Source: a virus (taxonomy: Duplodnaviria > Caudoviricetes). Taken from it: DNA of 64,000 nucleotides. Shown piece after piece: positions 7,678 through 24,060 of this stretch. Numbering within the stretch: position 1 is the first letter of the stretch; each line of letters starts with the position of its first letter. The stretch lies in the IMG/VR virus record IMGVR_UViG_3300021400_000134; one strand, 5' to 3'. The translations under genes were made by a program, and so were the position numbers. The notes under the pieces are model-generated. The model searched no databases, had not been told where the DNA came from, and saw only the letters and a program-made list of their open reading frames with translations.

Positions 7678-8121
7678 TTGGCGAAGATGATAAATAAGTG
7701 CAAAGGAATTGAAGACATGCGCTATTCAATATTGGATATGCTGGATAATGGCATGAGTATTGCCGAGGTTAAGGAAAAATTTAATAAGATTTTAGAAGAG
7801 GAACAATGCCGTAAGGAATTTATTGATACTGTTGCGGCAGCTGTTGAAAAACTTATCAAAACCATGTATTCAGATGTAGCTGACCTATATGATGAAGAGA
7901 CATTCCAGATGTTTGCGGATGCTGATGTTCTTGGGAAAGTGGAGTATGATGCCCAGGAGTTGCGGAAGCTGAAGTCTGCCGGATATGAGAAGGCAGCGCC
8001 TTGGGAAGTCAATGATGACTTTGGCCCTGGTCCCACTCTAAAGGTGACTAAGGCACCTATTAAGTCTACGGCCGCAAAGGATGATGATGATATTCTTAAG
8101 GTGTGGTCAGCGTCCTTGTAA
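7678..8121 (+). CDS. hypothetical protein
   Basis: 147-aa ORF behind a TGTTATAAT promoter. Confidence 0.65.
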   Translation: MAKMINKCKGIEDMRYSILDMLDNGMSIAEVKEKFNKILEEEQCRKEFIDTVAAAVEKLIKTMYSDVADLYDEETFQMFADADVLGKVEYDAQELRKLKSAGYEKAAPWEVNDDFGPGPTLKVTKAPIKSTAAKDDDDILKVWSASL

Positions 8122-8302
8122 AAAATTACGGAAAAGATTTTTTACAAACATCATAAAGAACTGGGAAGAATTAAGTTTATATGCTATCTTGTTTCTCCTG
8201 GTTTTATACAAAGATATTCGAAAGATTCGTGAGAGGCGTACAAACTCATAAATTTTTTTCATATAACCTCCCTTTACACATACACACTTTTTACCTTTAT
8301 AG

Positions 8303-8344
8303 AAAACTGGACTCTGGCTGTACGCCCTGGAGTCCAGTTTTTTT
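8303..8344. terminator. bidirectional terminator-like hairpin
   Basis: AAAACTGGACTC...GAGTCCAGTTTT. Confidence 0.65.
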
Positions 8345-8990
8345 ATTATATAAGGCCATATGCGGTTGCGCCAAGGGGGCAAACTTTGTGAAAATTTTCA
8401 CAAGCGGCCGGCCAGGAGGGAAGGTGCTATTAATAGCGATATGGGGTGGCATATGCGGGATTGTCGTGCCGAACGGTTTAATCGGGTTGCCGCAATTATA
8501 GTAATAACTTTCCACTATTGGAGCAGCATATGCAGAAAAAGTTTCAAATGCCGTTCGGTATAGATATATACCCCATTTTATTATATCATATTTTTTATAA
8601 AAAATCAATAATTATGGCAAAAATTGCGGTTTTTGTGTTATTTTGTGAGAAAAATTGATATTTTTTTTTAAAATTATAGCAAATTTTTGTGATTTTTGTC
8701 AAATTTTTTATAGAAAATTGATGCTTTTTGCGAGAAATTTATAAAAAAATTGGCGTTTTTTTAATATTATACCAAAATTTTTAATAATTTTGCCAGAAAA
8801 ATGCGATTTTTGCAAAAAATTTTTCATAATATGCGATTTTTGGTGCGATTAAAAAAGATTTTTACGGAAAATTTGTGAAAATTTTCACAAACCGTGCCGA
8901 CCGGCCGCCGAACTTTAGGGAAATCCCGCGCGCCATATGCGGCCCCGAGTTGCGAAAAAAAAGTTGCCATATGGCGTGCCGGCCGGAAAA

Positions 8991-9158
8991 CCGACCGTAG
9001 TCGGAGTTAGTCTCAACTAACTGACCGATGGTCAGAGTTAGTTAGCCTAAACTAACTGTTGCGTTTCCAACTAATTTGTGAAAGTTCAAACTTTCACAAA
9101 CTTGACTCCCTGAAAATTTTTCATTTTTTTGAAAACAAATTTGTGAATTTTCTCACAA
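8991..9158. promoter_or_regulatory. tandem array of different palindromic operator-like sites
   Basis: CCGAC-N4-GTCGG, GTTAG-N6-CTAAC x2, CTGACC-N3-GGTCAG, GTTG-N6-CAAC, TTGTGAA-N10-TTCACAA, TTGTGAA-N4-CTCACAA; the first six abut. Confidence 0.7.
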
Positions 9159-9391
9159 TAACGGGAAAAGCAAAAAAATTTTAAAATTTTTGAATTTTTT
9201 TCTTGACTTTTGCGGTGGCGTGTGGTATAATGAAAACGGCCTGGTTCGCTAGTAAGCGGGCCGCCAATTATAGCACGACTGGGGGTGCTTGTCAAGCACT
9301 TTTTTTGACAATTTTTTGCCATTTTCTGTTTAGTATTACTAAACTACCGGCAGTTAGTCAAGCCTAACTCTGGCTCAAAAAAAGAAGGCTT

Positions 9392-9784
9392 CTAGCCCTC
9401 CTTTTTAGCCCTGTGAGCGGTTAATGTCAGCGTGTAGTGCACGCCATTATCACCCACAAAGTCCACCGCACGCTCGGCGTTTACAACGCTCACAGAAGCA
9501 ATTCCAGCAGTGGCGCCAAGCGCATCAGCGACCGCCTTAATGACTGCCTGTTTGAACAAGTCCGCTTTGCGCTCCCTCGGCTTGGCGTTTCCGCTCACCT
9601 TGCGAGTACCTGTATTAGCGAGTTTGCGAGCGTTGCGCATCTGTTCCTTGGTTAAGTCCCAAGGCTTGGCAATTCCGCGGTCGGTATCGCGGTCATCCGC
9701 AATTAACTGTATTGCTTCCTCGCGTGTGCATTTCAGCGTGCGCATGTGATGCTGAATTAACTTTTCATCCAATAGTATCACCAC
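9392..9784 (-). CDS. hypothetical protein, paralog of 12694..13095
   Basis: Shared HM.TLKCTREEAIQLI.DD...LT.EQ...RERK.D..K...Y.LTLT.HRAKK. Confidence 0.75.
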   Translation of the reverse strand: MVILLDEKLIQHHMRTLKCTREEAIQLIADDRDTDRGIAKPWDLTKEQMRNARKLANTGTRKVSGNAKPRERKADLFKQAVIKAVADALGATAGIASVSVVNAERAVDFVGDNGVHYTLTLTAHRAKKEG

Positions 9785-9826
9785 CTTTCACAACGGATGA
9801 GGGAGAAAGGGCTTGCGCCCTTTCCC

Positions 9827-10171
9827 TTAAATCTTGGTGAAATACGCTTTGCCTTTCACCACCTCGCGGGAGACAAGAACATTGTCGCGCATCTTTTTAA
9901 TCAGCGCAGACACTTTCTGCCCACTCGCTTCTGCGAGTTCAGGAACGAGCGCCTGAATCTCACTGACAGTGTAGGACTTTCCGCCCTCCATTGCCTCGTA
10001 AATACGCTCAATCAGTTCAGCGTTTGCCACCTGCTTGGCAGTGGGCTTGGTGGACTTGCGCTCGTTCTTTTTAGCGAGCAGTTCAAGTTCGTGCAGGAGG
10101 AATTCCTTGTCTTCCTCATGAGCGTAGCCGAGAATGCGGTTGAAATAGTCACGTTTCGTCATTTTTTCCAT
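9827..10171 (-). CDS. small winged-helix protein, paralog 2
   Basis: TKRD...HELELLAKKN...KPTAKQVANAEL...SGQKVSALIKKM...VVKGKAYF. Confidence 0.8.
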   Translation of the reverse strand: MEKMTKRDYFNRILGYAHEEDKEFLLHELELLAKKNERKSTKPTAKQVANAELIERIYEAMEGGKSYTVSEIQALVPELAEASGQKVSALIKKMRDNVLVSREVVKGKAYFTKI

Positions 10172-10511
10172 AGTTTAATCACCTTTACCTTTCTGTATAA
10201 ATATTACCATGGTTTTGAAGATAAGTCAAGCACTTTTTTTCATCTGCGGAAGATTTTTTTTGTGCCCTTCCCTTACCTTACAAATACATTATACAGAGTT
10301 GCCTGTACAAAAAACATGCCAACCCCGTGTGAAAAAATTCACAAGCGGCGGTTTAGTACCACTAAACTTTTGGGAGAAAAAAATTGGCAAAAAATTGTCA
10401 CACTTTTCTCTTGACAAATGCTGGCGGGTGTGCTATACTAAAATTTCGGCCCGCTGCACACGTTTGCGGGCCGGCCTGGTTAGTCAAGTATAACTTTCAA
10501 AAAATCGCAAT

Positions 10512-11493: not shown

Positions 11494-11752
11494 GATAACC
11501 CTCCTTCATTATTATAATACATCTTATTTTTAAAAAAGTCAATAAAAATTTTTGCAAAAATTTTTGCGTCAAAAAAAATTTTTTGGTATAATAAAAATGT
11601 AAGGTGAAGAACCTTACATTCCATTCCATTTTAAACTTTTCTAGAAAGCCGGTGATGAGCCGGCTTTCGCCTTTCCCGGGGCGGCACTTGTGAATGTTTT
11701 ATTTTTCACAAAGTCGTATTCAAAAAAAATAGGGGATTTTATCCCCTATTTT

Positions 11753-12079
11753 TTACAGTGCCTTGAAGATGGTAGACTTGCCGTCCTTCACCTTTTCGAC
11801 AGCGCCTGCTTCAACCAACTGCTTAAGCAGAGCGGAAGCCTTCTGAACGCTGATGCCGACAGCCTTTCCTGCATCAGTAGCAGTCAGACCTTCACCGAGG
11901 GCTTCAAGCAGAGCGCCCTTGATGGTTTCATTTTCCTTCTGAGTCTTTGTCAGACCCTTTCTCGGAGAACCTTTGCGGACAGACTTGAGGGCTCTTTCAA
12001 CGAGGAAGTTGAACTGTTCTTCTGTCAGAGAATCGTAAGCAATAGCGTTAATCTGTTCTGTAATAGTTGTCTTTGTCAT
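11753..12079 (-). CDS. small winged-helix protein, paralog 3
   Basis: GLTATDAGKAVGISVQKASALLKQLVEAGAVEKVKDGKSTIF is a typical wHTH. Confidence 0.8.
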   Translation of the reverse strand: MTKTTITEQINAIAYDSLTEEQFNFLVERALKSVRKGSPRKGLTKTQKENETIKGALLEALGEGLTATDAGKAVGISVQKASALLKQLVEAGAVEKVKDGKSTIFKAL

Positions 12080-13168: not shown

Positions 13169-13516
13169 TTAAATCTTTGTGAAGTAAGCAGCTCCCTTCA
13201 CAACTTCTCTCGATACGAGAACATTATCACGCATCTTTTTAACGAGAGCGGAAACCTTCTGACCGCTTACATCGGCAAGTGCAGGAATCAGAGCCTGAAT
13301 TTCAGCGATACGATAGGACTTGCCTGTTTCCATCGCTTCATAGATTTCTTCAATCAGTTCAGCATTGGCAACCTGCTTTGCAGACGGCTTGTCAGAGCGT
13401 CTTTCATTCTTTTTTGCGAGCAACTCGAGTTCATGGTCGATGAATGCGATTTCCGCTTCATCAGTCAGATGGGTACGAATCTGTTCGAACATTTCACGCT
13501 TTGTAATCTTTGTCAT
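13169..13516 (-). CDS. small winged-helix protein, paralog 4
   Basis: Close paralog of 9827..10171. Confidence 0.8.
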   Translation of the reverse strand: MTKITKREMFEQIRTHLTDEAEIAFIDHELELLAKKNERRSDKPSAKQVANAELIEEIYEAMETGKSYRIAEIQALIPALADVSGQKVSALVKKMRDNVLVSREVVKGAAYFTKI

Positions 13517-14090
13517 AATTAATCACCTTTTACCTTTCTTACAATTTAAGTATACACCTTTTTGGTTATGTTGTCAAGAGGTTTTTTCAGATTTTTTTAA
13601 GGATTTCTTTTTTCTCATCCCCTCTTTACATTCTAATTATAGCAGACTTGCTATACTTTGTCAAGAGGTTTTTCTACATTTTTTTCTGAGGCTACGTATC
13701 TATCGCTTCTAGTTGCTCAATACGGTTCATCCTCTTGACATTATTAGTATAGCAGATGTTGGAAGATTTGTCAACACCTTTTTTAGAAATTTTTAAGAAA
13801 TTTTTTTCTATTTCTTTTTTATTTCTATAATAATTATAAACCTTTTTTATAAAAAAGTCAACAAAAATCTTTGCTAATTTTTTCACAAACGCCGCCCGGG
13901 ATTTCCGCAAAAATCACACAATTTCACATAATTTTCTTCTTGACTTTTGGTCGTGGGTGTGGTATAATTTTCGGTCGTTAGCGGCAACTAACTATGGCTT
14001 AAAAATTTTTTATTTTTGCACAAAAAGTGTTGACAATCTTTTTCTTTTGGTGTATTATAATCTTGTAAGTTAAAGGAAGGTAAAAACACT

Positions 14091-15000: not shown

Positions 15001-15003
15001 AAT

Positions 15004-15091
15004 TGAGGGCGACGGGACTCGAACCCGCATTATAGCGCGCATATCACATTCGGCACACTGACCGACGGCACTACCATTGTGCTACGCCCTC
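15004..15091 (-). tRNA. tRNA-like gene with long variable arm and aberrant anticodon arm (most like degenerate tRNA-Leu CAG)
   Basis: Acceptor GAGGGCG/CGCCCTC + A73; D-arm GCAC-AATGGTA-GTGC; T-arm GCGGG-TTCGAGT-CCCGT; anticodon arm TCGG-TCAGTGTG-CCGA is non-canonical; no encoded CCA. Confidence 0.75.
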
Positions 15092-15123
15092 ACAAGGGGG
15101 GAGCCTTTCGGCTCCTCCTGCGC

Positions 15124-15456
15124 TTACTCGGCGATTCCGAAGGTTGCCTTTACCTTACCCTTGGCTTCAGTCACCTTGGTGAACTTGCCACTGCGGTTGA
15201 GGATTGCGCTTGCCTTCTGATTGGAGATGCCGAAGGCTTCTTCAACCTGTCCGCAAGTTACAGCGCCATTTTCAGCGATGTAAGCGACAATCTTATCAGC
15301 GAGTTCAGCGTTGGCAACCTGTGCCTTAGTCGGCTTATTGGACTTGTAGCCCTTGCGCTTGTCGAGCAGTTCGAGTTCATGTCCGCAGAAACCTACGATT
15401 TCAGCGTCATTGGAGCAGACTTCCATAATCTTGTTCAGCATTTCTCTCTTTGTCAT
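15124..15456 (-). CDS. small winged-helix protein, paralog 5
   Basis: N-terminus like paralogs 2 and 4, C-terminus like paralog 1. Confidence 0.8.
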   Translation of the reverse strand: MTKREMLNKIMEVCSNDAEIVGFCGHELELLDKRKGYKSNKPTKAQVANAELADKIVAYIAENGAVTCGQVEEAFGISNQKASAILNRSGKFTKVTEAKGKVKATFGIAE

Positions 15457-15554
15457 AATCATCACCTTTTACCTTTCTTATCTCTTTGTGATTTTAGTAT
15501 ACAACATTTCAGCCATGTTGTCAAGCCCTTTTTCAAGGTTTTTTTATTTTTTTA

Positions 15555-17115: not shown

Positions 17116-17325
17116 AGGGTTTCCTCTCTTTACAACTATTATTATACACCTATTGGAGATAATGTCAAGCGTCAGTTTCGGGATTTTTTAATTTTTTTCA
17201 AAAAATTTTTTTATTTTTCCTCTTGACATCGGCGGGCAAACGTGGTATAATTTTGGACCGTTAGCGGTGGCTAACTTTGCGGTTGCCGGTAAAACCGTCC
17301 GGCAGACCGCCGAGCGCAAAAAAAA

Positions 17326-21321: not shown

Positions 21322-21549
21322 GTTCTGAACCTCCTTACATTATTATTATAACACAACGCCGGAAATTGTCAATAGTTTCGGGCAAAAAGTTTCAGGAAAT
21401 TTTAAAAAATTTTTAAAAAATTTCAATTTTCCTCTTGACTTCTGCGGCCCGGCATGCTATAATTTTTCGACCCGTTAGCGGTGACTAACCAAAGTCCGCA
21501 CTTGTGAAAGTTTAAACATTCACAAGTTTCTCCAAAAGAAAAGAGGTTC

Positions 21550-22125: not shown

Positions 22126-22269
22126 TTTTCTTTCCTCTTTCTTTTTACACTTTTATTATAGCATACTATTCCGGTCTGTCAATACTTTTTAATTAATTTT
22201 TTAATTAAATTTATTCCCGCAAAAACTTTGTGAAAGTTCAAACTTTCACAAGTTGCCCCTAAAAAAAAC

Positions 22270-22422: not shown

Positions 22423-22871
22423 TTTATTTACCTCTTTTCCTTATCTTCACCCTTATTATAGCCGGCGTTTGCGGTTTTGTCAAGGGGTTTTCTTAACTTT
22501 TTTTATTTTTTTCTCGGGGTTTTCTTTGTCCCTTCCCCTTCCTTCAATTATAGTATAACACACTTTCTGTCAATGTCAAGCCCTTTTAATAAAAAATTTT
22601 TTTTATTTTTTTATAAATTTTTCTTGACAAGTCGCAAGCTCTGTGGCATGCTGTGGCTGTGCTGGCAAGGCTCTGCATCGATGCAGTGCTAAGGTTTCAG
22701 GAAAAGGTGCTGGCTCTGACTTTGGTGCTGAAGCGCTTGCGAAAATGTGGTGAGTTCAGACAGTGCGAAAATTGCGTCGCCACACCCGCTGGCGGCGCAA
22801 GGCACGCTTACTAGTAGCACATTAGCCAAGACCGCAAACTCTTGCGCTGCATCGATGTGTTGTATTCTTTT

Positions 22872-23660
22872 AACTATTCTATCTACTCTTGGTTAGTCTA
22901 TACTAACTAACACTGTTAGTGTACACTTACTATACATGTGTAGTGTAGTGTAGTACACTGTTACTACTGTTGTTGTATAACATGCTGTGTGTGTACTACT
23001 TACTACTACTGTTACTGCTACTATTGTACTGTATGTAGTACACACATTGTCTGTCTACTGTTGTTGTGTGTATCTTATTATCTTACTACTAATGTATTAG
23101 TACTGTTGTGTTACCTCTTCATCATACTGTGTGAAGTCTCTGTATCCTGTCAGTACATACAACACATCACACATTGTCTGCGTGTTGTATCCATTGAGTG
23201 CTGTTGCTACCTGCATGGTCTGCTCCTGCACACCTACTACATCTACCAAGTAGTTATACATGTCTTCTGTTGTGTTATACATCATTGTCTCTCCTTGTTT
23301 ACACTATTATTATAACATGTTGTTGTGTTGTTGTCAACAGTTGTTGTTGTGTTGTTGTGTTACTCTCTTGGTTGGCTCTGGCTGGCTGGCCAAGCCTCTA
23401 GGCCTAGGCCCTGTAGCCGTAGAGCACTCTGTAGTCGTGTGTAGGCACCCAATAGCCATCAAATACATAAGCGATGTTCTCATTCTGTCTGAGTTCTCTA
23501 GCCTTAGCTACAGCCTCTTCTCTCAGAGTGTAGTGCTCTTCTACCTCTTTTACCACTGTGCCGAATGCTACAGTGTTTACTGTTGTGTTGTCTACTGTTC
23601 TATGTCTTAACATCTTGTGTACCTCTCTTATCCTCTTTACACTTGTATTATAGCAGTACA
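22872..23660. other. homopolymer-depleted segment containing two cassette genes (23097-23285, 23404-23613, minus strand)
   Basis: No AAA/TTT/GGG/CCC between 22872 and 23297; rich in TAC/TGT/ACA. Confidence 0.8.
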
Positions 23661-24060
23661 TGCCGGTTTTGTCAAGAGGTTTTGCGAAAGTTTTTTATTA
23701 TTTTTTTGCAGTGCATCGATGTATCGGGATTTTTTTGTAGGTAGAACTCACGCGAGTTTTTGCTTTGCATCGATGTGAAGCGTTTTTTTCAACAAAACAA
23801 GGCTCGCAGCGTGCGTCAGCGAGCCTGCGATTTTGGGGGAGGGCGGGGGCCCTCCTATAGTGTCTCTATCGCTCAGATTAGCAAGGACCCACGTCTACCT
23901 TGTGTAATTTTTATCATTTGAAAACCCCGGGGGTGGGTTTTGGGAAAAAATTTTTTTTAGAAGAGCAAAACGTTTCGCTCTCCACCACCCTCCCACTCAA
24001 AGTTACCCCCATCACCATTACGGGATTTTATAAAAAAAAGTGTCTTTCGACACTTTTCGA

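Follow-up and report, generated by a model that had tools for sequence, protein, structure and literature searches.

Phages take over their hosts by means of proteins, and in a few cases they obey one host regulator. A cluster of high-affinity sites reduces the amount of free protein, as with datA, the DnaA sink of E. coli, and multicopy operators derepress their regulon; that such operators titrate repressors is physically established by the Fur titration assay. We know of no natural phage example of a titration locus. In T4-type phages, PeSL cassettes carry early genes, each with its own sigma-70 promoter and an intergenic palindrome, and the units are shuffled between relatives. Host Spo0A sites repress the early promoters of phi29 (PMC2731898). 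The phage-borne tox operator of Corynebacterium diphtheriae is a box for the host iron repressor (PMC13001254), and host motifs that read host physiology are found as CtrA sites in phages of Alphaproteobacteria, where they bring about 'lytic deferment' (PMC9437464), and as Pho boxes in cyanophages (PMC10976474). The preliminary description of the locus studied here knew of no account of a phage DNA array that titrates several host repressors. Literature searches agree, since no paper was found on stacked multi-repressor host sites on phage DNA or on a phage DNA sponge; yet host-factor sites on lytic phages are known, as phi29 demonstrates (PMC2731898).

The window, by which we mean the whole 64,000-nt stretch that was analysed, is part of a large TGA-recoded phage of gut or rumen with relatives of ~170 kb. 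Its late genes lie on the '+' strand at 25-64 kb and include the portal and virion proteins; their ORFs of 2861, 1445, 1182 and 811 aa appear only when TGA is taken as Trp. Across 25047-64000 ('+'), ORFs of up to 2861 aa were seen under code 4 only, and the early region uses the standard code. At 9.4-24.7 kb no genetic code, alternative codes included, gave long ORFs. This region consists of small '-' strand genes in array with one near-consensus sigma-70-type promoter apiece, and ~45 such promoters were counted in 8.6-25 kb. It also houses a tRNA-Leu (CAG) at 15003-15092 on the '-' strand. The nearest relative found is a 176,419-bp IMG/VR contig with 66% identity across a neighbouring 130-aa protein; blastn found nothing in the GenBank phage collection, and a search of metagenomes with the conserved block returned only three further loci.

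The palindrome array occupies part of a non-coding gap of ~830 bp (8560-9390) where the early region ends downstream. A '+' module borders this gap on one side and the last '-' early gene (9784->9392) on the other, and relatives keep the gap as DNA. The flanking ORF at 8181-8501 ('+') has zero relatives in the viral collection and is probably spurious rather than a gene. A 51-aa ORF at 8109-8262 ('-') with a strong GGGAGG ribosome-binding site converges on the gene at 7678-8121; its protein is not kept in L001. Positions 8300-8590 of the '-' strand hold a candidate non-coding RNA of ~270 nt, running from a conserved extended -10 promoter (TGATATAAT, ~8585) to a terminator-like hairpin at ~8303-8340, the stem of which is kept among relatives with varying sequence. 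This candidate RNA includes the perfect Rex-type box at 8386.

Seven palindromes had been reported at 8991-9158, and all seven were present, as written, in their places:

8991..9004, no strand: H1, CCGACCGTAGTCGG, the palindrome CCGAC-N4-GTCGG; kept in all five homologous loci
9005..9022, no strand: single iron-repressor (DtxR-family type) box AGTTAGTCTCAACTAACT, AGTTAG-N6-CTAACT; arms and spacing are those of bacterial feoAB operators
9021..9035, no strand: H3, CTGACCGATGGTCAG, CTGACC-N3-GGTCAG; has 2 nt in common with the preceding box 9005-9022
9036..9057, no strand: double iron-repressor box AGTTAGTTAGCCTAAACTAACT; holds the exact 18-mer of bacterial feoAB, ZIP and dtxR promoters
9058..9071, no strand: H5, GTTGCGTTTCCAAC, (TA)GTTG-N6-CAAC(TA); recurs in L001, L003 and L009
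9075..9100, no strand: long-class palindrome TTGTGAA-N10-TTCACAA, TTTGTGAAAGTTCAAACTTTCACAAA; identical copy at 22228
9141..9158, no strand: Rex-type box with one mismatch, TTGTGAATTTTCTCACAA; centre ~88 bp upstream of the '+' promoter start

The first six palindromes had been described as abutting. The first five do abut or overlap, but the sixth follows only after a 3-nt gap. It is also true that no gene is directly attached, the DNA being non-coding, but '+' and '-' promoters lie 45-140 bp to the right. The density of the array is exceptional: inverted repeats (arm >=5, spacer <=8) take up 93 of the 110 bp at 8991-9100, compared to a mean of 17 and a maximum of 82 in the other 110-bp tiles of the window, and to a mean of 11.5 and a maximum of 55 in 2000 shuffles. 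Two of the families are over-represented across the window. AGTTAG-N(2-12)-CTAACT occurs four times against an expectation of 0.02, and TTGTGA-N(2-16)-TCACAA nine times against 0.09, all nine within 8.4-22.3 kb.

The array is flanked by further boxes and by two facing promoters:

8386..8403, no strand: second perfect Rex-consensus box; non-coding, left of the AT-rich region, kept in L001
8872..8891, no strand: perfect Rex-consensus box TTGTGAAAATTTTCACAA; kept in all six homologous loci
8893..8990, no strand: conserved GC-rich block containing CCGGCCGG and two CCATATGG palindromes; defined from alignments
9203..9231, + strand: conserved counter-oriented promoter TTGACT-17-TGgTATAAT, A/T-rich upstream; kept in all homologous loci
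9267..9295, - strand: perfect sigma-70-type promoter facing the '+' promoter 9203-9231; predicted starts ~20 nt apart
9328..9344, no strand: palindrome GTTTAGT-N3-ACTAAAC; kept in L001, L003 and L333, family also at 10351 and 14812
9352..9369, no strand: third iron-repressor box AGTTAGTCAAGCCTAACT; identical 18-mer in L001 and L003

The conserved parts of the AT-rich region at 8560-8870 are -10 boxes, extended, on the '-' strand. Gene-less '+' promoters directed against the '-' early genes are found not only at 9203 but also at 10411, 12520, 13940, 14871, 17223, 18588, 19508 and 21435, and each one transcribes across either an iron box or a GC hairpin. Several of these GC hairpins are terminator-like on the '-' strand, with a hairpin followed by a T-run. 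Such promoters could serve iron-dependent antisense transcription or transcriptional interference. Further right, positions 22600-24050 are GC-rich and non-coding and hold four TGCATCGATG-type palindromes and one iron box (22892).

The alignment covered six homologous loci, namely the window, L332, L001, L003, L331 and L333. The '+' promoter, H1, the GC-rich block, the Rex-type box at 8873 and the AT-rich stretch are kept in all six, and the box content between them differs. The window and L332 carry a Rex-like box, the N10 palindrome, H5, the double iron box, H3, the single iron box and H1; L003 carries a Rex box, H5, CTTTAGCGCGCTAAAG, an iron box and H1; L001 is as L003, but with CTTTAACGCGTTAAAG replacing CTTTAGCGCGCTAAAG and without the Rex box; and L331 and L333 carry a Rex-like box, CTTTAACGCGTTAAAG and H1 without an iron box. 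The single iron box (9005..9022) and H3 (9021..9035) are confined to the window and L332, and the double iron box (9036..9057) has identical counterparts in L001, L003 and L332 and none in L331 and L333. At the position of the box at 9141..9158, L003 has a perfect copy and L001 none. Since the flanks are fixed and the boxes are swapped among homologous loci, the array is modular. The arms of H1 co-change to CCGAT/ATCGG in L001 and L003, and CCGGCCGG becomes CCGATCGG in relatives with both central bases changing together. In H5 the asymmetric centre has opposite orientations in the window and in L001 and L003. Such modularity, with orientation being immaterial, is in keeping with protein sites on duplex DNA and less so with a structured RNA or a precise machine.

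At other loci, relatives carry different boxes. Perfect CIRCE elements are present in L005 and L008 and perfect parS sites in L007 and L011, with iron and Rex-type boxes adjoining. Perfect or near-perfect parS sites (TGTTTCACGTGAAACA) lie beside iron boxes at L007:7104 and 7787 and at L011:3356 and 7639, both being phage contigs that bear the 18-mer described below. In G001, ~2 kb of non-coding DNA is given over to ten or more perfect Rex-type boxes, two perfect CIRCE elements and 7 iron boxes. This Rex/CIRCE/iron-box array (L005:3300-5250) is syntenic with 21.1-25 kb of the window, where the window sequence differs, so that the arrays turn over quickly.

The iron boxes at 9005-9022 and 9036-9057 show GTTAG/CTAAC arms separated by N6, as in bacterial operators, and the 22-mer at 9036-9057 includes TTAGGCTAA, the core of the actinobacterial IdeR consensus (PMC4598388). 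The 18-mer AGTTAGTTTAGGCTAACT, the reverse complement of 9040-9057, was found in 12 viral-contig stretches and in 63 bacterial genome contigs, the latter compared to a chance estimate of ~17. The 63 contigs were mostly from Clostridia (Lachnospiraceae, Oscillospiraceae and rumen Ruminococcus), with some from Gastranaerophilales, Treponema and others. In bacteria the 18-mer is located immediately upstream of start codons, and Pfam assigned the downstream genes to FeoA, FeoB, ZIP transporters, NrdI and short DtxR-family repressors (Fe_dep_repress plus Fe_dep_repr_C), several of the repressor genes being divergent from feoA. A FeoA, FeoB, ZIP, NrdI or DtxR-family gene was present within 2.5 kb of the 18-mer at 24 of the 63 loci. 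The same loci contain 94 GTTAG-N6-CTAAC sites compared to 2 for a control pattern, which indicates that the host operator has the form of the phage box, with fixed arms and a free 6-nt spacer. The claim of a DtxR/IdeR-type box was therefore borne out by the exact 18-mer upstream of feoA, feoB, ZIP, nrdI and DtxR-family genes. Gene context shows that the boxes at 9005-9022 and 9036-9057 belong to the predicted iron-repressor operator family of gut and rumen Firmicutes, which serves feoAB, ZIP and the repressors' own genes.

Members of the phage lineage have the box in 1-18 copies per genome. The window contains 7 iron boxes compared to 0.055 in shuffles, and the whole genomes of four relatives contain 12, 18, 5 and 1, compared to 0 for a reversed control, clustering in the early regions. 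No true DtxR or Rex was found in the phage genomes of the lineage when profile searches were judged against the cut-offs; the sole match was a generic winged-helix protein of 118-122 aa in a DNA-metabolism module, below both cut-offs. The window encodes on its '-' strand five paralogous proteins of 108-121 aa (1916-2281, 9827-10171, 11753-12079, 13169-13516 and 15124-15465), whose N-terminal parts are shuffled and whose C-terminal parts fall into three winged-helix-like types. The paralog at 9827 adjoins the array locus, only one of the five comes near the Pfam HTH cut-off, and none is DtxR-like. G002, however, has 18 iron boxes, no such paralog and no DtxR match above the cut-off, so the iron boxes need a binder other than the paralogs. 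The simplest candidate is the host repressor whose operator the box appears to copy.

The TTGTGAA family is less uniform. It had been equated with the Firmicutes Rex consensus, and TTGTGAA-W4-TTCACAA is indeed the Rex site that experiments defined in Staphylococcus aureus (PMC2883068), with perfect copies at 8873 and 8386; but of the two copies within the array one has a mismatch and the other has N10 spacing. The N10 class comprises the element at 9076 and those at 11688, 21502, 21862 and 22228. It was ruled out as a Rex site, since the spacing does not fit, and as a set of terminators, since proper terminators precede the palindromes on the '-' strand. Perfect Rex boxes were detected in 16 of 401 sampled Clostridia genomes compared to 15 for a control, and they were not enriched in ten further genomes bearing iron boxes. 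Six of 12 inspected perfect Rex sites lay in the promoter of a gene whose N-terminus was read as that of a malic enzyme. The Rex reading therefore rests on consensus identity; a Rex-type repressor would probably bind the N4 boxes. A phage-encoded binder of the TTGTGAA family, especially of the N10 class, is a live alternative. The paralogs and TTGTGAA-N(4-10)-TTCACAA, the N10 class included, are both present in the window, G001 and G003 and both missing from G002 and G004; these five genomes are related and not independent, so that the co-occurrence is a lead only.

The remaining palindromes had been likened to TetR/MarR-type operators, and nothing was found that ties H1, H3 or H5 to TetR or MarR proteins. 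In the viral collection H3 (as a 15-mer) gave chance-level matches, and the degenerate H5 gave unrelated phage families or chance-level matches, so that these scans are uninformative on the binders. At the bacterial loci with the 18-mer, H1, H3, H5 and TTTAGT-N3-ACTAAA were all un-enriched.

To see how the iron boxes are positioned, 81 of them from the window and its relatives were placed relative to the nearest consensus promoter, and three classes were distinguished. In the first class the centres are at +9.5 to +11.5; there are eight cases, five in L005, L008 and L009 and three in the window:

13977..13992, no strand: iron box over the start of the '+' promoter 13940-13968; begins 9-11 bp after the -10
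17260-17275, no strand: sister iron box behind the '+' promoter 17223; begins 9-11 bp after the -10
21474-21489, no strand: sister iron box behind the '+' promoter 21435; begins 9-11 bp after the -10

Boxes of the second class are at about -90, those in G002 directly after intrinsic terminators and beside a GGCCGGCC palindrome, and the remaining boxes form a third class in promoter-less arrays. None of the 81 lies between -60 and 0. In L002 (G002:152-158 kb) an intergenic unit is repeated in which a gene stop is followed by an intrinsic terminator, an iron box and a CTGGCCGGCCAG palindrome, with the nearest promoter call ~90-100 bp from the box. Relative to the predicted starts, the +10 class is in a classical operator position. 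In L001 and L003 an iron box overlaps the -10 of the equivalent of the '-' promoter 9267-9295. Since the iron box occurs at +10 and over this -10, the lineage appears to use it as a true operator.

The iron boxes within the array are placed differently. Both are orphans: measured from the start of promoter 9203, their centres lie ~190 and ~225 bp upstream, with transcription converging from both sides. No recognisable promoter was found within 130 bp of these boxes (9006 and 9041) on either strand, or inside the array. Sister copies thus sit on phage promoters where binding would block them, as in phi29, but the array itself does not, and the array is, as expected of a decoy, a cluster of predicted high-affinity sites unattached to a regulated promoter. 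Because its iron boxes have no promoter within 130 bp, we infer the cis role of the array from the other copies. The regular operator positions favour cis regulation at least as strongly as titration.

Collectively, these results make it probable that the array serves the phage either to read host regulators or to soak them up. Our tentative preference, held at somewhat less than even confidence, is for a modular cis docking pad for dimeric DNA-binding proteins that couples the iron and redox state of the host to control of the early region, with titration as a by-product. The holo form of a DtxR-type host repressor would sit on the iron boxes and, probably, a Rex-type repressor on the N4 TTGTGAA boxes, and the N10 box, H1, H3 and H5 would be bound by other factors, possibly the five winged-helix paralogs. 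Occupancy that depends on iron and redox would set a protein barrier or auxiliary operator beside the convergent promoters (9203-9231 '+' and 9295-9267 '-'), and this barrier between converging transcription would feed the host state into early-region control. The iron boxes over the starts of promoters 13940, 17223 and 21435 would act likewise, as Spo0A boxes do on phi29. Some titration of host repressors would follow automatically on genome replication and might serve as a further role. That sites for unrelated factors abut one another is awkward for such a pad under classical operator logic, candidate binders can be named by sequence for three of the seven palindromes only, and the lack of Rex-box enrichment in the 401 Clostridia genomes and in the further genomes also counts against it. 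Perfect arms, abutting sites and the absence of a promoter agree better with a repressor sponge, in which the array and the other consensus-grade boxes would titrate host repressors during genome amplification and derepress iron uptake, redox and, in relatives, chaperone regulons to the advantage of the phage, and for which placement with respect to phage promoters would not matter. We regard this as possible but rather doubtful. Box turnover in close relatives looks as though only number and affinity counted, G001 spends ~2 kb of non-coding DNA on Rex-type, iron and CIRCE boxes, and every identified site belongs to a supply-pathway repressor. The 64-kb window, however, has no more than 7 iron boxes and two perfect boxes of the Rex type, and many boxes of the lineage are in a fixed promoter register (~+10, or ~-90 after terminators) that a pure sponge would not need. 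The lineage-wide form of the idea, a multi-target sponge with DtxR-type and Rex-type sites and, in relatives, heat-shock (CIRCE/HrcA) and ParB (parS) sites that would derepress host supply regulons and evolve its repertoire rapidly through cassette exchange, is likewise conceivable though somewhat unlikely.

The palindromes might instead be operators of the phage winged-helix paralogs (1916, 9827, 11753, 13169 and 15124), their likeness to host sites reflecting mimicry, competition or, for TTGTGAA, coincidence. The three C-terminal winged-helix types approximate the number of recurrent palindrome families, the TTGTGAA family co-occurs with the paralogs and includes an N10 class that is not Rex, and gene 9827 adjoins the locus; but the co-occurrence comes from five related genomes, G002 has 18 iron boxes without a paralog, and one paralog is near the Pfam HTH cut-off with none like DtxR, which makes this explanation unlikely. 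A structural DNA element, such as an origin or terminus, a packaging or recombination site or cruciform hairpins on which proteins are merely architectural, is more improbable still. As at transcription-activated origins, a 300-bp AT-rich stretch with several promoters adjoins GC-rich palindromes, gene orientation and cumulative GC skew turn at the locus, and the co-changes in the H1 arms and the central bases of CCGGCCGG would be expected if pairing or symmetry matters. However, the AT-rich region present at 8560-8870 is conserved as -10 boxes, neither a single family of iterons nor an initiator or terminase gene was recognised at or beside the locus, the turn in gene orientation is convergent rather than divergent, and box content varies among close relatives, unlike in a precise machine. 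That the hairpins form part of a non-coding RNA made from the '-' promoter 9295-9267 we consider very improbable. The perfect promoter aims into the array and the fold is stable (z = -5.7 for '-' and -6.4 for '+'), but both strands fold equally well, as is inevitable for palindromes, a hairpin then GTTTTC directly follows the promoter, two of the 'hairpins' are exact bacterial DNA operators and H5 is flipped between relatives. At gathering scores Rfam returned only the tRNA-Leu (15004-15091), and in 8400-9500 permissive thresholds gave no family either. An intrinsic terminator or PeSL-type stem-loop was rejected on a consensus scan, which found no terminator-like site in 8300-9900, and the abutting hairpins are without T-tracts. 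With no Rfam family and no terminator, the RNA or terminator reading is weak, and under it the operator identity would be a coincidence.

In this phage, plain non-coding DNA thus carries exact host-operator copies, predicted to serve several global repressors, which are stacked one against the next and traded between relatives like cassettes. If the phage reads the boxes, infection would be timed by the iron and redox state of the host; if the boxes soak up repressors, host metabolism would be reprogrammed without a gene product, a new mode of takeover. Since the host must use such operators, the boxes also provide a handle on host range from sequence alone. What is added here is the proof from bacterial gene context that the AGTTAG family has the form of a feoAB/DtxR-type operator, together with the operator placement of the sister copies, the cassette swapping at one homologous locus and the co-occurrence of TTGTGAA with the paralogs.

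The arrangement resembles PeSL cassettes in its small early genes with their own sigma-70 promoters, conserved palindromes and shuffled units, but PeSL stem-loops are not copies of host operators. datA and the Fur titration assay differ in being chromosomal or artificial and in concerning one protein. As in phi29 and Nf (PMC2731898), a lytic-type phage carries sites for host global regulators, which would tie its development to the state of the host, here as judged from sequence. However, those phages use one factor, at promoters and origins, whereas the array combines sites for at least two host-type repressors and others that abut, lack a promoter and are swapped. The CtrA and Pho examples (PMC9437464, PMC10976474), in which host motifs likewise read host physiology, are promoter-linked and single-factor, and dense multi-factor arrays are not described there. 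The C. diphtheriae tox operator (PMC13001254) is similar in placing a box for a host DtxR-family iron repressor on phage DNA, but it is a single operator for one cargo gene of a temperate phage; in contrast, the window has 7 boxes and its relatives 1-18 per genome, located in early regions and in the Firmicutes form GTTAG-N6-CTAAC.
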